Shown here piece after piece: positions 42,631-53,030 of a stretch of DNA of 64,000 nucleotides (positions within the stretch are counted from its first letter, which is position 1; every line of letters begins with the position of its first letter). The position numbers and the translations under genes were made by a program. The DNA lies in assembly GCA_051882575.1 (NCBI GenBank), contig JBJESB010000092.1, positions 23,421 through 87,420 on the forward strand, read 5' to 3'. This DNA comes from Oscillospiraceae bacterium. Its GTDB lineage: Bacteria > Bacillota > Clostridia > Oscillospirales > Ruminococcaceae. The notes beneath the pieces were generated by a model. The model had not been told where the DNA came from. It worked only from the letters and a program-made list of their open reading frames with translations, and did no database searches.

Positions 42631-42824
42631 GGAATGACACTTCTTCGTCAAGTTGTCGGCTGATAATGTTTTTTCAACCGTTTCTTACATTTTGCTTAAT
42701 TATTGAAAAAAACTGCTTATATTTTACAAAACCTCTTGATTTTTAAGTCAAAATATGAGAAAATAAAAGAGAGTTTATATTTGACTCTTTTTGTATTTTA
42801 GAAAAACTGAAAGGTGATATATAA

Positions 42825-45275
42825 ATGGCGCGCTTTTTTAATTTCGAGGGAGATTACTTTGGACTGAATGATGAAGAGCTTGCGACAAATTTTGAGCTTT
42901 ACGGTGAAAATGTGTACGAAAAGCCTGATGATGAAGATTATTTTTCACCGTTAAGAATTGTGTTGTCGCCATCTGTAATTCTCATGTTTGTAACAGGCTT
43001 GGTAAGCCTGTTCAGCGATAATCTTGCTTCGGGAATCATAATACTTGTACTTGACGCACTGTTCGTAGCTTCTCAGCTGTTTGTACGCCACGAAGCGATA
43101 AAGCGGCTTGACGCAATCGGCAGTTCAGCTTCTATGAAATTCCGTGTTATCCGCAACGGAACAATGTCTTATGTTGAAAAGAGATATATTGTACCGGATG
43201 ATATTCTTGTAATAGAAGCAGGCGAGCAAGTTCCTGCTGATGCAATGCTGCTGGAGTCGCGCGATGTTACGGTAGACGAGAGCGTGCTTACCAACAGCTC
43301 AAAGCCTGCGGCAAAGTATGCAGGTGCTATCTCAAAATCCGAGTGTAACCCATCTTTCTTTTACAGCGGTACAAAGATGCTGACAGGCATAGCAGTCTGC
43401 AAGGTTCGTGCCACAGGCGTTGATACCAAGCTTTACCGCAAGCTTCTTGATACCCAGCCCGAGCGCAGCCACACTACTCGTCTTGACCGCACAGTACGCA
43501 TAACCGTACTGTACAGCTCTGTTGTGGCTGCGGTACTTACATTGGTATTACTTATTATCTCGTTAGTTACCGGAGCACCGTTTATTGACAGCACACTTCA
43601 TGCGCTTTCAATAGGTCTTTGCTTTATTCCGGCGGGAATAAGCACGGTTATCCGCGCGTATTATTTAAGGGGAGTATCACAGCTTCAGGCATCGGGCGGA
43701 CTTATCAAGTCGCTGGATATGATTGAAAAGCTCAATTCTTTATCGGTACTGTGCGTCGAAAAAGAGGGTGCAATCTCACGCGACCGTCTTTCTGTGCGCG
43801 AGGTATACACAAATAACGAAGAATTGCTGTACATGGTTGCTGCACTGGCTTGTGAAAAAGAGCCTGCCGACGATTCCGAGAGTGCAATAATGATGAAAGC
43901 GTCATTCTATGACGAGAATATCACCGATTTGTACTCACAGCACAAGCTGCTGAAAAGAATAAAAGAAGAAAACGGTGTAAGCGGAGCCCTTTGGAAAACG
44001 GGCGACAGCAAGCTTTACTGTATTAAAGGCGCTCCCGACAGTATTCTTCCGCTTTGCAAAATGAGCTCCGATGAACTTTATTCGGTAAAGAGCAAGCAGC
44101 AGGCTTATTATGAAGCAGGCTGGAGCGTAATTGCTGTGGCTTGTGTTGAAGCTTCCGGCAGTACGCATGATGTAACATCGGGCTTCAGGTATATTTTCTG
44201 CGGATTTTTTGCAGTGTCTGCGCCGCTGCGTGATTCTGTCGCAGCCGCTGTAAAGACTTGCAAGCGCACAGGTGTAAAAGTAGTAATGCTTACCGAGGAA
44301 AGCGCACCGGTTGCGGAATCTACCGGTAAGATGATTGGTTTGCCCGGCAAAACAATTACCGGAAAGATGATTTCCGATTCAATCAATAACGGAACACCGC
44401 TTGAGTATGACGCTGATATTTATGCTAAAGTGACGCCTGAACAGAAGCTGTTTATCATTGATAATATCAAGCGGCAGGGCAAGGTTGTTGCAATGACCGG
44501 TACACGGGTTTCCGATGCGGATACGCTGGAGCTTGCCGACATAGGGCTTACAATCCGCGACCATACCCAGGGCAGCGCCTATGAGTCTGCTGATATAATA
44601 ATGAACGACGATAATCTTGGCTCAATTGCCGACATGATAGCTGCCGCTCGTCAGATTCATCGCAATGTAAAGCGCGCAGTTTCGGTTATGATTTCGGGAT
44701 ATATTGCGCTGATAATGCTTGTAGTGCTGAATTTATTCAACAGTTCAGCGCTGATGATAAACCCCACAATGGTTGCGTTGACTACAATGGTGATTCTGCC
44801 TGTAATCTCACTTGTATTTATTCGCAATGGAAGCGATTTGAAGAATAATATGCCTCCCAGTGAGTTTGTAATTCAGAATAAAATCAACTACCGTTTTATT
44901 CTGCAAACAGCGCTGTACGGGCTTATTATCGGTGTTGGAGCGATAGCGTCGTATTTCTTTATGTACAACGGCAGAACCGTAGAGTTCGCAAGAAGCTGCG
45001 CGTTTATATCATTCGGAATAGGGCTTGCATTGATGTCGCTGCACAATTTCAACACCGAAAGTGTGCTGGATTCGTTCAAGCACGTTGATAAGAAGGCAGC
45101 GATAATACTTATCGGAACTGTTCTTCTTCCGATACTGCTGGTCTACATTCCGTTTGTGAATACGGCTTTCGGTCTTGAAGCAATTGATATTGTCGCGCTG
45201 ATTATTTCGATTCTTTCGGGCGTTGTACTTCCGGCAGTATATGTGCTAATAAAGAGGCTTGCAAAATTCCATTGA
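42825..45275 (+). CDS. P-type (P2-like) ATPase homologue with substituted catalytic motifs (pseudo-ATPase)
   Basis: Full P2 layout (GEQVPAD, KGAP, TPEQK, ADIG, DDN) but DKTGT>EKEGA, TGES>TNSS, TGD>TEE, GDGVND>GTRVSD, PEGL>PAGI. Confidence 0.85.
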   Translation: MARFFNFEGDYFGLNDEELATNFELYGENVYEKPDDEDYFSPLRIVLSPSVILMFVTGLVSLFSDNLASGIIILVLDALFVASQLFVRHEAIKRLDAIGSSASMKFRVIRNGTMSYVEKRYIVPDDILVIEAGEQVPADAMLLESRDVTVDESVLTNSSKPAAKYAGAISKSECNPSFFYSGTKMLTGIAVCKVRATGVDTKLYRKLLDTQPERSHTTRLDRTVRITVLYSSVVAAVLTLVLLIISLVTGAPFIDSTLHALSIGLCFIPAGISTVIRAYYLRGVSQLQASGGLIKSLDMIEKLNSLSVLCVEKEGAISRDRLSVREVYTNNEELLYMVAALACEKEPADDSESAIMMKASFYDENITDLYSQHKLLKRIKEENGVSGALWKTGDSKLYCIKGAPDSILPLCKMSSDELYSVKSKQQAYYEAGWSVIAVACVEASGSTHDVTSGFRYIFCGFFAVSAPLRDSVAAAVKTCKRTGVKVVMLTEESAPVAESTGKMIGLPGKTITGKMISDSINNGTPLEYDADIYAKVTPEQKLFIIDNIKRQGKVVAMTGTRVSDADTLELADIGLTIRDHTQGSAYESADIIMNDDNLGSIADMIAAARQIHRNVKRAVSVMISGYIALIMLVVLNLFNSSALMINPTMVALTTMVILPVISLVFIRNGSDLKNNMPPSEFVIQNKINYRFILQTALYGLIIGVGAIASYFFMYNGRTVEFARSCAFISFGIGLALMSLHNFNTESVLDSFKHVDKKAAIILIGTVLLPILLVYIPFVNTAFGLEAIDIVALIISILSGVVLPAVYVLIKRLAKFH

Positions 45276-45288
45276 ACTGGGAGGTATT

Positions 45289-46146
45289 ATGAAAACTTTT
45301 GTAAAATATCTCGGGTATTTTATCTGCGGACTTTCATTCGGAATAGCGAATGTCATTCCGGGAGTTAGCGGTGGCACAATGCTGGTTGTATTTGGCATTT
45401 TTGATAAGCTGACCGAATCAATTTCCGGCATAAAAGCAATTTTTAAGAACATCTGGTTTTTGCTCTGCTTTGGCGCAGGCGCAGGAATAGGAATATTAGG
45501 TTTTTCGTTTGTGATATCATGGCTGTTTGCTGGCTTTGGTGTGCAGACCAATATGTTCTTTATCGGACTGATACTTGGCAGTATTCCTCTGATAATTAAA
45601 ACAGGCACATCCGATGAAAAGGTCAAGCCGCTGTGCATTATTCCGTTTGTGATAGCCTTTGCAGTGGTTATATTGCTTTCTGTTCTTGAGCGTTATGATA
45701 TCGTCAGCATTACGCCGGATGTTGTAAACGGCTTTGATATTATGATGACGCTAAAGCTATTTGTCTGTGCGCTGGTTGCAGCGGTAACAATGATAATCCC
45801 CGGTGTAAGCGGCTCGTTTGTAATGATGCTGCTGGGCGTGTATGAAACGGTTATCGGAGCAATCAAGGATTTGAATTTATTTGTACTTGTTCCTTTTGCG
45901 ATTGGCGTAGTTATAGGAATAATCGGCGGCGCAAAGCTGATTTCTGTTCTGATTAAGAAGCATAAGCTTATGGTTTACAGCGCAATTATGGGACTAATCG
46001 CAGGGTCGGTTTACGCGATACTTCCCGAGGGATTCGGATTCAATCTGCAAACAGGCTATGGCTTTGTCGCGCTGATTTTCGGCGTACTTGCAGCAATTCT
46101 TGTTGATAAGCTTGGACACAATCACGCACAGGAAGAGAAAGCATAA
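45289..46146 (+). CDS. DUF368 family membrane protein (undecaprenyl-phosphate translocase family)
   Basis: Internal repeat ANVIPGVSGGT / MIIPGVSGS; multi-TM. Confidence 0.88.
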   Translation: MKTFVKYLGYFICGLSFGIANVIPGVSGGTMLVVFGIFDKLTESISGIKAIFKNIWFLLCFGAGAGIGILGFSFVISWLFAGFGVQTNMFFIGLILGSIPLIIKTGTSDEKVKPLCIIPFVIAFAVVILLSVLERYDIVSITPDVVNGFDIMMTLKLFVCALVAAVTMIIPGVSGSFVMMLLGVYETVIGAIKDLNLFVLVPFAIGVVIGIIGGAKLISVLIKKHKLMVYSAIMGLIAGSVYAILPEGFGFNLQTGYGFVALIFGVLAAILVDKLGHNHAQEEKA

Positions 46147-46262: not shown

Positions 46263-47033
46263 GTGTATTATAACAAGGTTGAAATCAGCGGCGTGAATAC
46301 CTCAAAGCTAAAAGTATTGCGCGAGAGCGAAAAAATGGCTCTGCTGAAAAAAGTAAAAGAGGGAGATATGCAAGCACGCGAGGAGCTGATTAACGGAAAT
46401 CTGCGGCTGGTGCTAAGCGTAATACAGCAATTTGCAGGCAGAGGGGAAAACGCAGATGATTTATTTCAGGTTGGGTGTATCGGTCTTATCAAGGCGATTG
46501 ACAATTTTGATATCACGCAGCCGGTACGATTTTCAACCTATGCAGTGCCGATGATTCAAGGTGAGCTAAGGCGATATCTTCGCGACAACGCGCCCGTACG
46601 CGTCAGCCGCTCTCTGCGTGATTTGGCATACCGCGCAATGCAGGCAAAGGAAAAGCTGACAGCAAAAAATGGCAGTGAGCCGTCAATTGACGCTATATCA
46701 AAAGAACTGAATGTCCCGCGTCAGGATATCGTAATGGCGCTGGAAGCGATTAGCGAGCCAATTTCACTGTATGAGCCTGTATATTCCGAAACAGGTGACA
46801 CAATTTACGTTCTTGACCAGCTTGGCGACCATAACGACGATATGAACTGGCTTGATGAACTCTCGCTAAAAGAAGCCATGCGTCAACTGGGTGCGCGGGA
46901 AAAGCGAATAATAAATTTAAGATTCTTCTGCGGTAAAACCCAAGTTGAGGTTGCAAAAGAGATTGGCATAAGTCAGGCACAGGTATCACGATTGGAAAAG
47001 GGCGCATTAAACAAGATTAAAAACAGATTTTGA
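46263..47033 (+). CDS. sigG: Sporulation sigma factor SigG
   Basis: NKVEISGVNTSKL, GNLRLVLSVIQ, DDLFQVGCIGL, FSTYAVPMI, GKTQVEVA; GTG start. Confidence 0.92.
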   Translation: MYYNKVEISGVNTSKLKVLRESEKMALLKKVKEGDMQAREELINGNLRLVLSVIQQFAGRGENADDLFQVGCIGLIKAIDNFDITQPVRFSTYAVPMIQGELRRYLRDNAPVRVSRSLRDLAYRAMQAKEKLTAKNGSEPSIDAISKELNVPRQDIVMALEAISEPISLYEPVYSETGDTIYVLDQLGDHNDDMNWLDELSLKEAMRQLGAREKRIINLRFFCGKTQVEVAKEIGISQAQVSRLEKGALNKIKNRF

Positions 47034-49172: not shown

Positions 49173-50945
49173 TCAGTTCTGTTTTCTGACCTTTATATGA
49201 ACCTCACGAAGCTGCTGCTCTGTAACCTCTGTCGGAGCGCCGAGCAAAAGATCCTGAGCATTAGAGTTGAGCGGGAATGCGATAACCTCACGGATGCTTT
49301 CTTCGCCTGTAAGAAGCATTATCATGCGGTCAACGCCGGGAGCCATACCTGCATGGGGCGGAGCGCCGTATTTGAATGCATTGTAAAGAGCGCCAAACTT
49401 GCTTGCAACATCTTCTTCGGTGTAGCCTGCAATTTCAAAAGCCTTAACCATGATGTCAAGGTCGTGATTTCTGACTGCGCCCGAAGAAAGCTCAACACCG
49501 TTGCAGACAATATCGTACTGGTATGCGAGAATATCAAGCGGATTCTTGTTCAGCAGCGCGTCAAGACCACCCTGAGGCATGGAGAAAGGATTGTGCGTAA
49601 AGATAATCTTGCCGGTTTCTTCGTCAAGCTCGTACATGGGGAAATCAACGATAAAGCACAGCTCAAAGCGGCTCTCATCAATGAGGTTCATGCGCTTTGC
49701 AACTTCAGTGCGAATCTGTCCCGCAAATTTAGGTGCATTCTTTGCGCTGTCTGCGATAAAGTACAATACATCGTCAACCTCAAGCTCGCAGCGCTTTGCA
49801 AGCTCGGCTCTCTGGCTGTCGTCAAGGAACTTGTCGATAGGACCGTTGAACTTAAAGCCGCCGTTCTCGCCGGCTTCAACCTTGAAATAGCCCAAGCCCT
49901 TCATGCCAACCTCTTGGGTAGCAAATTCCTCCATGCTCTTGAAGAAATTCTTGGACTGTTTTGCCATATTAGGAACTCTGATACCGCGAACGCACTTATT
50001 GCAGAAAGGCTTGAAATCACTGTCAACAAACAAGTCTGAAAGCTCCTTGATTATCAGCGGATTGCGAAGGTCAGGCTTGTCAGAGCCGTAAGTCAGCATA
50101 GCCTCACTGTACGGGATTCTTCTGAACGGGGCAGAGGAAACCTGCTTATCGGAGAACTTTGCGAATGTGGCTGAAAGAACCTCCTCTGCAACAGCAAATA
50201 CATCCTCCTGCGTAGCAAACGACATCTCAAAGTCAAGCTGATAGAACTCGCCGGGTGAACGGTCTGCTCTTGCATCCTCGTCACGGAAGCAGGGAGCTAT
50301 CTGGAAATACTTATCAAAGCCGGAAACCATGTAAATCTGCTTAAAAATCTGCGGAGCCTGCGGCAGAGCGTAGAACTTGCCGTGGTGCTTGCGGCTGGGA
50401 ATGAGATAGTCACGAGCGCCCTCGGGCGAGGATGTGGAAAGAATAGGAGTCTGAAGCTCCAGAAAGCCCATTTCGCTCATTTTATTGCGCAGGAACGAGA
50501 TAATCTGCGAGCGCAGAACAATATTATCATGCATTTTCTTGTTGCGCAGGTCAAGATAGCGGTACTTTAAGCGTACCTCTTCTCTTGTTTCGCGTGAGGA
50601 TGCAATCTCAAACGGAAGCTGCTCTGTAACCTTACCGAGAATACGAACCTCTTCAGCCTCAATTTCAATTTTACCGGTTTCAATTTTGTCGTTATAGGTG
50701 CTTTCGTCACGCTTAAGAACCGTACCCGTGATAGATACAGCGCACTCCTTATGAATGCCCTCAAGTAAGGTCTCATTGTGGAAAACCACCTGTACAACGC
50801 CGTAGTGGTCACGAAGGTCAACAAACATAATTCCGCCGTGGTCGCGGATATTTTCTACCCAGCCTGCTGCACGAACTTTCTTGCCAATTTCATTTTCGGA
50901 GAATGAGTTGCAGTAGCCTGTACGGTATTCGTTTTCAAGAAACAC
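49173..50945 (-). CDS. aspS: Aspartate-tRNA ligase, copy 1 (non-discriminating-like signature RDHGG)
   Basis: IRDHGG, RLKYRYLDLR, PEGARDY, FYALPQAPQ, CFRDED, GAPPHAG. Confidence 0.95.
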   Translation of the reverse strand: MFLENEYRTGYCNSFSENEIGKKVRAAGWVENIRDHGGIMFVDLRDHYGVVQVVFHNETLLEGIHKECAVSITGTVLKRDESTYNDKIETGKIEIEAEEVRILGKVTEQLPFEIASSRETREEVRLKYRYLDLRNKKMHDNIVLRSQIISFLRNKMSEMGFLELQTPILSTSSPEGARDYLIPSRKHHGKFYALPQAPQIFKQIYMVSGFDKYFQIAPCFRDEDARADRSPGEFYQLDFEMSFATQEDVFAVAEEVLSATFAKFSDKQVSSAPFRRIPYSEAMLTYGSDKPDLRNPLIIKELSDLFVDSDFKPFCNKCVRGIRVPNMAKQSKNFFKSMEEFATQEVGMKGLGYFKVEAGENGGFKFNGPIDKFLDDSQRAELAKRCELEVDDVLYFIADSAKNAPKFAGQIRTEVAKRMNLIDESRFELCFIVDFPMYELDEETGKIIFTHNPFSMPQGGLDALLNKNPLDILAYQYDIVCNGVELSSGAVRNHDLDIMVKAFEIAGYTEEDVASKFGALYNAFKYGAPPHAGMAPGVDRMIMLLTGEESIREVIAFPLNSNAQDLLLGAPTEVTEQQLREVHIKVRKQN

Positions 50946-51254: not shown

Positions 51255-53030
51255 ATGGCAGACACAATGCAGGGTCTGAAAAGAACACATTACTGCGGCG
51301 AGGTTACACTTGAAGCAGGCGAGGTTGTAGTTGGCGGATTTACTCAAAGAGTGCGCGATAAAGGCAGCCTGATATTTATAGATTTAAGGGACAAGACAGG
51401 AATAGTACAGCTTGTTTTTGATGAGAACACAGACAGAAGCGTATTTGAAAAGGCAGAATCTGTTCGTTCGGAATATGTTCTTATGGCAAAAGGCGCAGTA
51501 CGCGCACGCGAGAGCGTTAACACCGAAATCAAGACAGGTGCAATAGAAATTGTTGTCAGCGAATTGAGAATCCTTTCAAAAGCGCAGACTCCTCCTTTTG
51601 AAATCACTTCCAACACAAAAACCAACGAGGAACTTCGTTTGAAGTATCGCTACCTTGATTTGCGCCGCGAGCCGCTTCAGCGCAACCTTATGATGCGCCA
51701 CGAGATTGCAAAGTGCGCGCGCGAGTATTTCTACGAAAACGGCTTTACCGAAATTGAAACGCCCATGATGATTAAGTCAACACCCGAGGGCGCGCGTGAC
51801 TATATCGTACCGTCGAGAATACACAACGGCAAATTCTATGCGCTGCCGCAGTCCCCGCAGATTTACAAGCAGCTGCTTATGATTGCCGGAATGGACAGAT
51901 ACATTCAGCTTGCACGCTGCTTCCGCGACGAGGATTTAAGAGCGGACAGACAGCCGGAATTTACACAGATTGACCTTGAGATGTCATTCGTTGATGTAGA
52001 GGACATTCTTGAGATGCTGGAGGGCTTTGTTCAGCGCCTTTACAAGCAGGTACTCAATGTTGATATCCCGCTGCCGCTGCCCCGACTCACCTACAACGAG
52101 GCAATGAACCGCTTCGGCTCGGACAAGCCCGATACCAGATTCGGAATGGAAATCACAGATATCTCGGAAATCGTAAAGGACTGCGGTTTCAGCGTTTTCA
52201 AGGATGCGATTGCAAACGGCGGCTCTGTTCGCGGCATTGTTGCAAAGGGTGCAGCAGGCACGCTTACAAGAAAAGAAATCGACAAGCAGACCGAATTTGT
52301 ACGCGGAATCGGAGCAAAGGGTCTGGCATACATTCGCTGGGTTGATGACGCACCAAACTGCTCATTCGGCAAGTTTATGGGCGAGGGCGAGCTTAAGGCT
52401 ATTCTTAACGCTCTTGGCTGCGAAAAGGGCGACGTTGCGTTTATTGTTGCCGATAAGAACAAGGTAACACTGCCCGTTTTGGGCGCACTTCGTCTGAAAA
52501 TTGCAAAGCAGCTCGACATCATTCCCGAGGGCTGGAATTTTCTTTGGATTACCGAGTTCCCGTTCTTTGAATACGATGAAGAAAGCGGCGAATGGCTCGC
52601 TATGCACCATCCGTTTACAATGCCCATGGATGAGTGCCTTGAGTATCTTGAAACCGATAAGGAAAAGGTACGCGCAAAGGCTTACGACCTTGTTCTTAAC
52701 GGCGTAGAGCTTTCCAGCGGCTCTATTAGAATCACAAACTACGAGCTTCAGCAGCGTATGTTTGAGCTGCTGGGACTTACCAAGGAAGAAATTGACGCAA
52801 AGTTCGGTTTCCTTGTAGACGCTTATAAGTATGGAGCTCCCCCTCACGGCGGCGCAGGCATTGGTCTGGACAGACTTTCAATGCTCATGTGCGGCTGCGA
52901 CAGCCTGCGTGATGTAACTGCATTCCCGAAAGTACAGAACGCAAGCGAGCTGATGAGCGAAGCGCCCTCAATTGTAAGCGAAGAGCAGCTTAAGGAACTG
53001 GGCATTGCAGTAACGGCAACAGAAGACTAA
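51255..53030 (+). CDS. aspS: Aspartate-tRNA ligase, copy 2 (discriminating-like signature RDKGS)
   Basis: KRTHYCG, RLKYRYLDLR, FYALPQSPQ, RADRQPEFTQID, MHHPFT, GAPPHGG. Confidence 0.95.
   Translation: MADTMQGLKRTHYCGEVTLEAGEVVVGGFTQRVRDKGSLIFIDLRDKTGIVQLVFDENTDRSVFEKAESVRSEYVLMAKGAVRARESVNTEIKTGAIEIVVSELRILSKAQTPPFEITSNTKTNEELRLKYRYLDLRREPLQRNLMMRHEIAKCAREYFYENGFTEIETPMMIKSTPEGARDYIVPSRIHNGKFYALPQSPQIYKQLLMIAGMDRYIQLARCFRDEDLRADRQPEFTQIDLEMSFVDVEDILEMLEGFVQRLYKQVLNVDIPLPLPRLTYNEAMNRFGSDKPDTRFGMEITDISEIVKDCGFSVFKDAIANGGSVRGIVAKGAAGTLTRKEIDKQTEFVRGIGAKGLAYIRWVDDAPNCSFGKFMGEGELKAILNALGCEKGDVAFIVADKNKVTLPVLGALRLKIAKQLDIIPEGWNFLWITEFPFFEYDEESGEWLAMHHPFTMPMDECLEYLETDKEKVRAKAYDLVLNGVELSSGSIRITNYELQQRMFELLGLTKEEIDAKFGFLVDAYKYGAPPHGGAGIGLDRLSMLMCGCDSLRDVTAFPKVQNASELMSEAPSIVSEEQLKELGIAVTATED

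Follow-up and report, generated by a model that had tools for sequence, protein, structure and literature searches.

A conserved P-type pseudo-ATPase encoded next to a PopT homologue in Oscillospiraceae

The window analysed here is a stretch of 64,000 nucleotides from contig JBJESB010000092.1 of an Oscillospiraceae bacterium (assembly GCA_051882575.1). On its forward strand it carries a gene for a degenerate P-type ATPase, followed by a DUF368/PopT gene and by sigG, with the following features:

42736..42764, + strand: predicted sigma-A-type promoter (TTGATT, 17 nt, TGn-GAAAAT; extended -10)
42810..42816, + strand: pseudo-ATPase ribosome-binding site AAAGGTG, 8 nt 5' of the ATG
42825..45275, + strand: P-type pseudo-ATPase, 816 aa, with an N-terminal MAxFxNF motif, A, N and P domains and ten membrane helices
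43290..43301, + strand: A-domain TNSS replacing TGES (residues 156-159; the dephosphorylation Glu is S158)
43629..43640, + strand: M4 PAGI replacing PEEF (residues 269-272; cation-binding Glu gone)
43758..43778, + strand: phosphorylation loop EKEGAIS replacing DKTGTLT (GAA at 43758 encodes E312)
44292..44300, + strand: TEE replacing TGD (residues 490-492; E491 in the phosphate pocket)
44499..44516, + strand: GTRVSD replacing GDGVND (residues 559-564; Mg-binding Asp gone, final Asp retained)
44649..44675, + strand: M5 stalk motif RQIHRNVKR (Q610, H612 and K616 conserved in the degenerate clade)
45280..45285, + strand: popT ribosome-binding site GGAGGT, within the 13-nt gap 3' of the pseudo-ATPase stop
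45289..46146, + strand: DUF368/PopT undecaprenyl-phosphate translocase homologue, 285 aa (PF04018, 147.9 bits; cut-off 26)
46263..47033, + strand: sigG (NF006071, 413 bits; cut-off 372)

The 816-codon reading frame translates without an internal stop behind its ribosome-binding site, as stated in a preliminary description made from the DNA letters. The sequence also bears out the substituted motifs listed there (EKEGAIS, TNSS, TEE, GTRVSD and PAGI) and the retained ones (KGAP, TPEQK, ADIG and DDN). The ancestral M4 motif had been named PEGL; it is PEEFP. The statement that every motif is substituted was correct but understated the loss: compared with the parent pumps, the M5 His, the M6 Glu and Asp, the DPPR Asp, the N-domain Arg and the YPF aromatics are gone as well. 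By column comparison, the cation ligands of M4, M5 and M6 (Glu/Glu, His, Glu and Asp) have become A270/G271, Y626, T654 and L658. The final Asp of GDGxND and the TPEQK Lys are the sole catalytic phosphate or Mg ligands retained; the roles of these single residues are established from SERCA-type pumps. M3–M7 and M9–M10 contain no acidic residue; the membrane segments have them only in M2 (D77, and E90 at the helix end) and at E720, where M8 begins.

The protein scores above the Pfam cut-offs for E1-E2_ATPase and Cation_ATPase_C; in NCBIfam it falls under every subtype cut-off and passes only the general model TIGR01494. An AlphaFold model built on a 51-row alignment (pLDDT 75.7, pTM 0.71) contains the A, N and P domains and ten membrane helices. 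Its best structural matches are the Listeria Ca2+-ATPase (LMCA1), Na,K-ATPase and SPCA1, with TM-scores of 0.65–0.78; in this comparison, which the preliminary description had proposed, the P2 architecture is whole. The P2 pumps (LMCA1, SERCA and SPCA1) and the PEEFP/LELIIDP subfamily have the fold, domain order and ten helices in common with the pseudo-ATPase, and P2 pumps give its best PDB matches in both sequence and structure. Unlike them, it lacks the phospho-Asp, the TGES Glu, GDGxND and the M4/M5/M6 cation ligands. This confirmed that the window encodes a real P2-type fold without six core catalytic and ion-binding residues, which we define as the TGES Glu, M4 Glu, phospho-Asp, GDG Asp, M6 Glu and M6 Asp.

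Where P4 flippases have DGET, PISL and DKTGT, the protein reads TNSS, PAGI and EKEGA, and TIGR01652 is absent among its 19 NCBIfam matches. The motifs LDGET and DKTGT are those given for P4 proteins in the available part of PMC13466520. The KdpB profile yields 61 bits against a cut-off of 528, a separate KdpB-like gene lies on contig C82, and no kdp-like genes recur beside pseudo-ATPase loci. Judged by its residues and profile scores, the protein falls outside P2, P4 and Kdp as defined and is best called a P-type pseudo-ATPase.

A protein search returned 1385 matches, and we aligned the query with the best 120 (48–93% identity). These 121 listed proteins (query plus matches) are termed g1-type, g1 being the window's genus; g35, g148, g161 and g83 are four further genera. 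All 121 listed proteins have none of the six core residues, which speaks against chance and assembly error alike, and the 116 active relatives keep five or six; these relatives were partly chosen by their M4 motif, which makes the M4 column circular. The Asp column holds Glu in 120 of the 121 listed proteins, Lys in one and Asp in none, and EK[EQ]G stands in place of DKTG in 120. K313, G315, K541 and D564 are invariant among the 121 listed, E491 and R561 each occur in 120, and D560 in none. The A-domain Glu is present in 0/121 listed proteins, 1/32 g35 proteins and 116/116 active relatives, and the first M4 Glu in 0/121 listed and 0/32 g35. None of the complete sequences from g35 (31), the outlying members (4) or the cluster representatives (23) has more than two of the six core residues. 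The KGxPE Lys is retained in 118/121 listed and 30/32 g35 proteins; the YPF/YPY aromatics persist in g35 and the outlying members and are gone from the window protein's own group.

Over 29 independent, non-overlapping pairs drawn from 83 paired loci, pseudo-ATPase dN/dS (Nei–Gojobori) had a median of 0.088 (range 0.03–0.33), similar to the 0.080 of PopT; the window's own gene lies outside these pairs, with a dS above 1.6 to every partner. The preliminary description had proposed a selected pseudoenzyme, an idea that DKTGT-keeping orthologues and neutral evolution would contradict. Neither was found: the orthologues likewise lack the Asp (0/121, query plus matches listed) and dN/dS is about 0.09. 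We are highly confident that the pseudo-ATPase is a conserved, selected P-type pseudoenzyme. A single locus (L083) is split by a frameshift. One g1-type gene (L096) sits on a contig titled Escherichia coli, which is likely mis-binned.

All degenerate proteins form one clade with a support of 1.0 (FastTree, 165 sequences), nested inside the PEEFP-type pumps; its distant members were found by a profile search of 50% representatives and by genome searches. Long branches could inflate this support, and the shared residues agree with a single clade. The tree indicates that the clade derived once from PEEFP-type pumps. Across it, the ion site, A-domain Glu and GDG Asp are gone almost without exception, while the phospho-Asp persists in 22/32 g35 and 3/4 outlying sequences. 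Loss of the transport cycle thus came before loss of the phosphorylation loop, which happened more than twice. The phosphorylation site of the wider clade drifts to GKDSV, NKAGG, DASSG and GRNSV, and g1 and g35 pseudo-ATPases are only about 30% identical. One sub-branch (P0132, P0139, P0143, L225 and L232) has PVSL or PISL in M4 and a fully eroded phosphorylation loop; PISL is the M4 motif of P4 flippases. The intact PEEFP pumps P0140, P0151 and L107 already carry an N-terminal motif like MAxFxNF, which is thus older than the loss of catalysis. The parent PEEFP/LELIIDP subfamily (L106-L117, L279-L358) is widespread; NCBIfam has no dedicated subtype model for it, and our literature search gave no match.

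We found the degenerate clade only in five genera of one family labelled Oscillospiraceae or Ruminococcaceae. Carriers comprise 23/24 g1 genomes (the exception is 66% complete), 31/31 g35 genomes, both g148 genomes and one genome each of g161 and g83. In an order-wide draw of 401 genomes, matches outside the family scored 590–676 bits, as active pumps do, and the ones retrieved have DKTGT. By GyrB identity, g35 and g148 (75% each) are the two genera nearest to g1, with all others at 69% or less, which fits vertical descent. A search among relatives of G106, G171 and G184 gave no further outlying members, and a metagenome scan for such members, run with an overly general pattern, returned only active PEEFP-type pumps, which we reused as a negative control. 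Named carrier records bear Oscillospiraceae, Ruminococcaceae or Clostridia labels and come from gut samples; family members appear in public records as 'cation-transporting P-type ATPase'.

Upstream of the pseudo-ATPase, the strict promoter pattern TTGATT-17-TGnxAxAAT was present in 70 of 81 regions (64/67 g1, 6/14 g35), against a mean of 0.05 and a maximum of 1 in shuffled controls; the pattern was derived from the same alignment on which it was counted. A generic promoter and terminator scan gave nothing above shuffles and did not list the promoter at 42736..42764. Downstream, a sporulation sigma gene in either orientation occurs in 63 loci, to be set against 78 g1 loci with at least 1.4 kb of downstream sequence. 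The sigG gene is likely to lie outside the pseudo-ATPase/popT unit, as a frequent neighbour in g1 only. The spoIIGA-sigE-sigG cluster is rearranged in g1 (L055, L022 and L084): in L055 the pseudo-ATPase/popT pair lies between sigE and sigG, and elsewhere sigG faces sigE head-on. In L192 (g148), sigG is directly upstream of the pseudo-ATPase. A role in sporulation, raised by the sigG, sigE and spoIIGA neighbours, was rejected: orientation varies, the link is limited to g1 and one g148 locus, it is absent from the extended g35 loci, one of which carries a sigF-like gene, and the promoter is sigma-A-like. Further along the window, at 49173-50945 and 51255-53030, lie what we take to be two different aspartate-tRNA ligase-like genes in tandem.

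The PopT homologue, of which a single gene copy was found in the source genome (G000), has both PGVSG motifs intact; the PG(V/I)SG motifs are invariant in 83 rows. Its 134 bits against the cut-off of 400 for NF052563, the NCBIfam PopT equivalog, make it a family member and not the named equivalog. From family membership, it would be expected to transport undecaprenyl phosphate. We counted pairing in 119 de-duplicated non-canonical loci with at least 250 nt downstream, from which four DKTGT pumps (split or variant frame) and one duplicate were dropped to give 114; a further 16 loci, including three truncated active pumps, were left out because too little sequence followed the gene. A popT gene lies downstream on the same strand in 79/79 g1 and 32/32 g35 informative loci (111/111), directly next in 109 and after one metallophosphoesterase gene in two. 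The gap has a median of 12 nt over 83 pairs, 12 of which overlap. In the active-pump control, pairing was seen in 0/106 informative loci, one of which has popT elsewhere on the other strand. Pseudo-ATPase and popT are thus a gene pair in g1 and g35. All three informative outlying loci (L121 and L192, both of g148, and L119 of g161) have no adjacent popT; the PopT genes of outlying members lie elsewhere in the genome and in other branches of the PopT tree, in which g1 and g35 PopTs group together (support 0.75). The preliminary description had recognized the pseudoenzyme but missed this downstream gene, the shared promoter and the PEEFP-type origin.

Other neighbours vary. In g1 the upstream genes include an ABC pair, tig-clpP-clpX, uvrAB and others, and in g35 at most 8 of the 23 extended loci share any family besides PopT. 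A PopT gene is present in 204/401 family genomes; the 13 pseudo-ATPase carriers in that draw all hold one, although they represent five genera and kin are not independent. In three small, partly overlapping sets, branch rates of the pseudo-ATPase covaried with those of PopT at -0.04, 0.41 and 0.57, and more with an unrelated neighbour (0.62, 0.86 and 0.68). We treated the correlations with prfC, tig and ABC genes as noise of small sets.

Several paired loci have additional features. PopT contains an insert of 96–123 aa between its halves in 11/14 g35 and 12/69 g1 pairs (for example, L105:648-947 and L022:8867-9235); the window PopT has none. The insert is modelled as a beta-sandwich that most resembles CBM2/CBM3 carbohydrate-binding modules (E 6e-4, TM 0.4-0.58); it had no ESM Atlas match and no Pfam family at cut-off. 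In two g35 genomes (L259:3509-4330 and L260:8629-9456), the gene between pseudo-ATPase and popT encodes a membrane-anchored YaeI-like metallophosphoesterase, which has its fold class in common with B. subtilis UpsH. The accessible part of PMC11898649 reports that UpsH, a metallophosphoesterase, and UshA, an alpha/beta hydrolase, free carrier lipid; proteins with folds like these two are encoded beside popT in a few g35 loci. In L268 and L272, popT is followed by genes for an alpha/beta hydrolase, a MurF-like ligase and a D-Ala-D-Ala ligase; in L269 and L271, galU lies within two genes 3' of popT; and in eight g35 loci (L120, L122, L256 and five more) an APH/Bud32-like kinase gene comes after popT.

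Among known systems, the closest precedent, by analogy, is the degenerate P4 module of alveolate guanylate cyclases. As described in the portion of PMC13466520 available, P4GC-beta of Cryptosporidium and ciliates keeps the P-type fold and has lost the DKTGT Asp and the A-domain Glu, as here, and a structural or regulatory role for the attached enzyme has been proposed. That module is eukaryotic, P4-derived, fused to its client and CDC50-dependent (PMC13466520, same portion), whereas the pseudo-ATPase is bacterial, P2-derived and encoded by a separate gene beside a lipid-carrier transporter. KdpB, the P-type subunit of bacterial KdpFABC, is likewise encoded together with a transporter from a different family, which it serves (PMC9651954, in the part available). 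However, KdpB is active and powers KdpA; the pseudo-ATPase has neither catalytic residues nor kdp neighbours. S. aureus PopT and V. cholerae VCA0040 are DUF368 proteins with both PGVSG motifs, like the window neighbour (bioRxiv 2022.02.03.479048 and PMC9876793, main text). In contrast to these described proteins, 23/83 paired PopTs carry the CBM2-like insert. The main text of the same two papers contains no link between DUF368 and a P-type ATPase ('ATPase' has zero and one unrelated match). Our literature searches, which left subscription journals mostly outside coverage, returned no description of the pseudo-ATPase family or of its pairing with PopT. The family is real and looks undescribed.

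The reading that we favour, held tentatively and at a little under an even chance, is that the pseudo-ATPase is locked, does not pump and acts in the membrane as a scaffold that aids or regulates PopT. Both genes would be transcribed in vegetative cells from the one sigma-A-type promoter. The old active site may be plugged by fixed charges (E312, E314, E491 and R561, with K541 and D564 alongside); these would keep the headpiece in a single conformation, a Glu taking the place of the phospho-Asp. The conserved residues gained in the clade are concentrated in the stalk (R277, Y279, Y280, Q610, H612, K616, D671 and S679). Going by known P-type anatomy, the residues of RQIHRNVKR would cluster with R277/Y279/Y280 and S679 into a candidate binding surface, so that R277, Y279, Y280, Q610, H612, K616 and S679 may face the inner side of the membrane and bind PopT or the phosphate head of the carrier lipid. 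The pseudo-ATPase could thereby position, stabilize or tune undecaprenyl-phosphate recycling. We therefore favour a static scaffold that would bind a partner or an anionic lipid there, and PopT is the sole recurring partner candidate. The dead pump predates the pairing, so a link to PopT would mean that a scaffold which had already lost catalysis was put to use later. Counting against a lock, the plugged-site residues are fixed only in g1, and g35 keeps the Asp in 22/32. Counting against PopT as the partner, about half of the family has PopT, mostly without the pseudo-ATPase, and the unpaired g148 is as near to g1 by GyrB (75%) as g35. PopT is itself argued to act as the transporter in the portion of Roney and Rudner's preprint (bioRxiv 2022.02.03.479048) available. 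A bolder version is unlikely: a two-subunit machine for lipid-carrier recycling in which the dead pump, locked by a phospho-mimicking Glu, would be a dedicated PopT accessory subunit. That would turn the KdpFABC arrangement around and make this the first family of P-type pseudoenzymes that stands alone and has a defined client.

The pseudo-ATPase may instead have a scaffold or nucleotide-sensing job of its own, unrelated to PopT, with popT a passenger placed behind a constitutive promoter by one event in the g1 and g35 ancestor. We regard this as a close rival, only somewhat less probable than the favoured reading. A shared promoter alone can keep two genes together, the outlying members have no neighbouring popT, the grouping of g1 and g35 PopTs fits one event, and the rate covariation with PopT is unspecific. 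Set against this are zero separations in 111 loci over about 70% protein divergence, while the other g35 neighbours are all reshuffled, and the lack of any other recurring partner candidate. For nucleotide sensing, one of four roles raised in the preliminary description, the retained KGxPE Lys (g1 and g35) and YPF/YPY (g35 and outlying members) leave room in g35 and the outlying members, but the loss of the adenine-pocket aromatics in g1 makes ATP sensing doubtful for the window protein. A scaffold or regulator is the best fit of those four roles. Two others, a passive channel and an ion sensor, fit poorly, since the membrane has lost its cation ligands without gaining a polar path in their stead. 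A passive channel or leak would be consistent with the ten helices kept, but with M3–M7 and M9–M10 free of acidic residues we consider it most improbable.

We give very little weight to continued ATP-driven transport, by glutamyl-phosphate chemistry or of a new lipid-like substrate as in P4 flippases. The near-invariance of E312, K313, K541 and D564 in g1 and the PVSL/PISL of a few g35-side members would suit such a transporter, yet no cycle is left once the A-domain Glu, the Gly of TGD and both Asp and Asn of GDGxND have been lost, the phosphorylation site drifts in the wider clade, and an Asp/Glu substitution in Toxoplasma P4GC was non-viable according to the accessible part of PMC13466520. 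It is also highly unlikely that the protein joins a different, active P-type pump of the cell in a hetero-oligomer, as its dominant regulatory subunit. The source genome encodes five further P-type ATPases, all with DKTGT, that could serve as partners, and fold and headpiece are preserved; however, the PEEFP-type parent pump was not found in that genome (G000), none of the 24 g1 genomes gave a parent-level score, and pump genes do not recur in the neighbourhood. Gene decay or misassembly, to which the frameshift in L083 might point, is already refuted by the low dN/dS, the absence of core residues from the 121 proteins (query plus matches listed), the conservation of the substituted residues, near-universal presence in two genera and a conserved promoter.

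P-type ATPases are defined by the phospho-Asp, and databases annotate these pseudo-ATPases as working cation pumps. The clade forms a natural series, from active PEEFP pumps, via proteins with DKTG intact but ion site and TGES lost, to a site rebuilt throughout, and opens the question of what function a P-type scaffold has once its cycle is gone. Should the PopT link prove functional, the pseudo-ATPase would be the first candidate accessory subunit for DUF368 carrier-lipid transporters.
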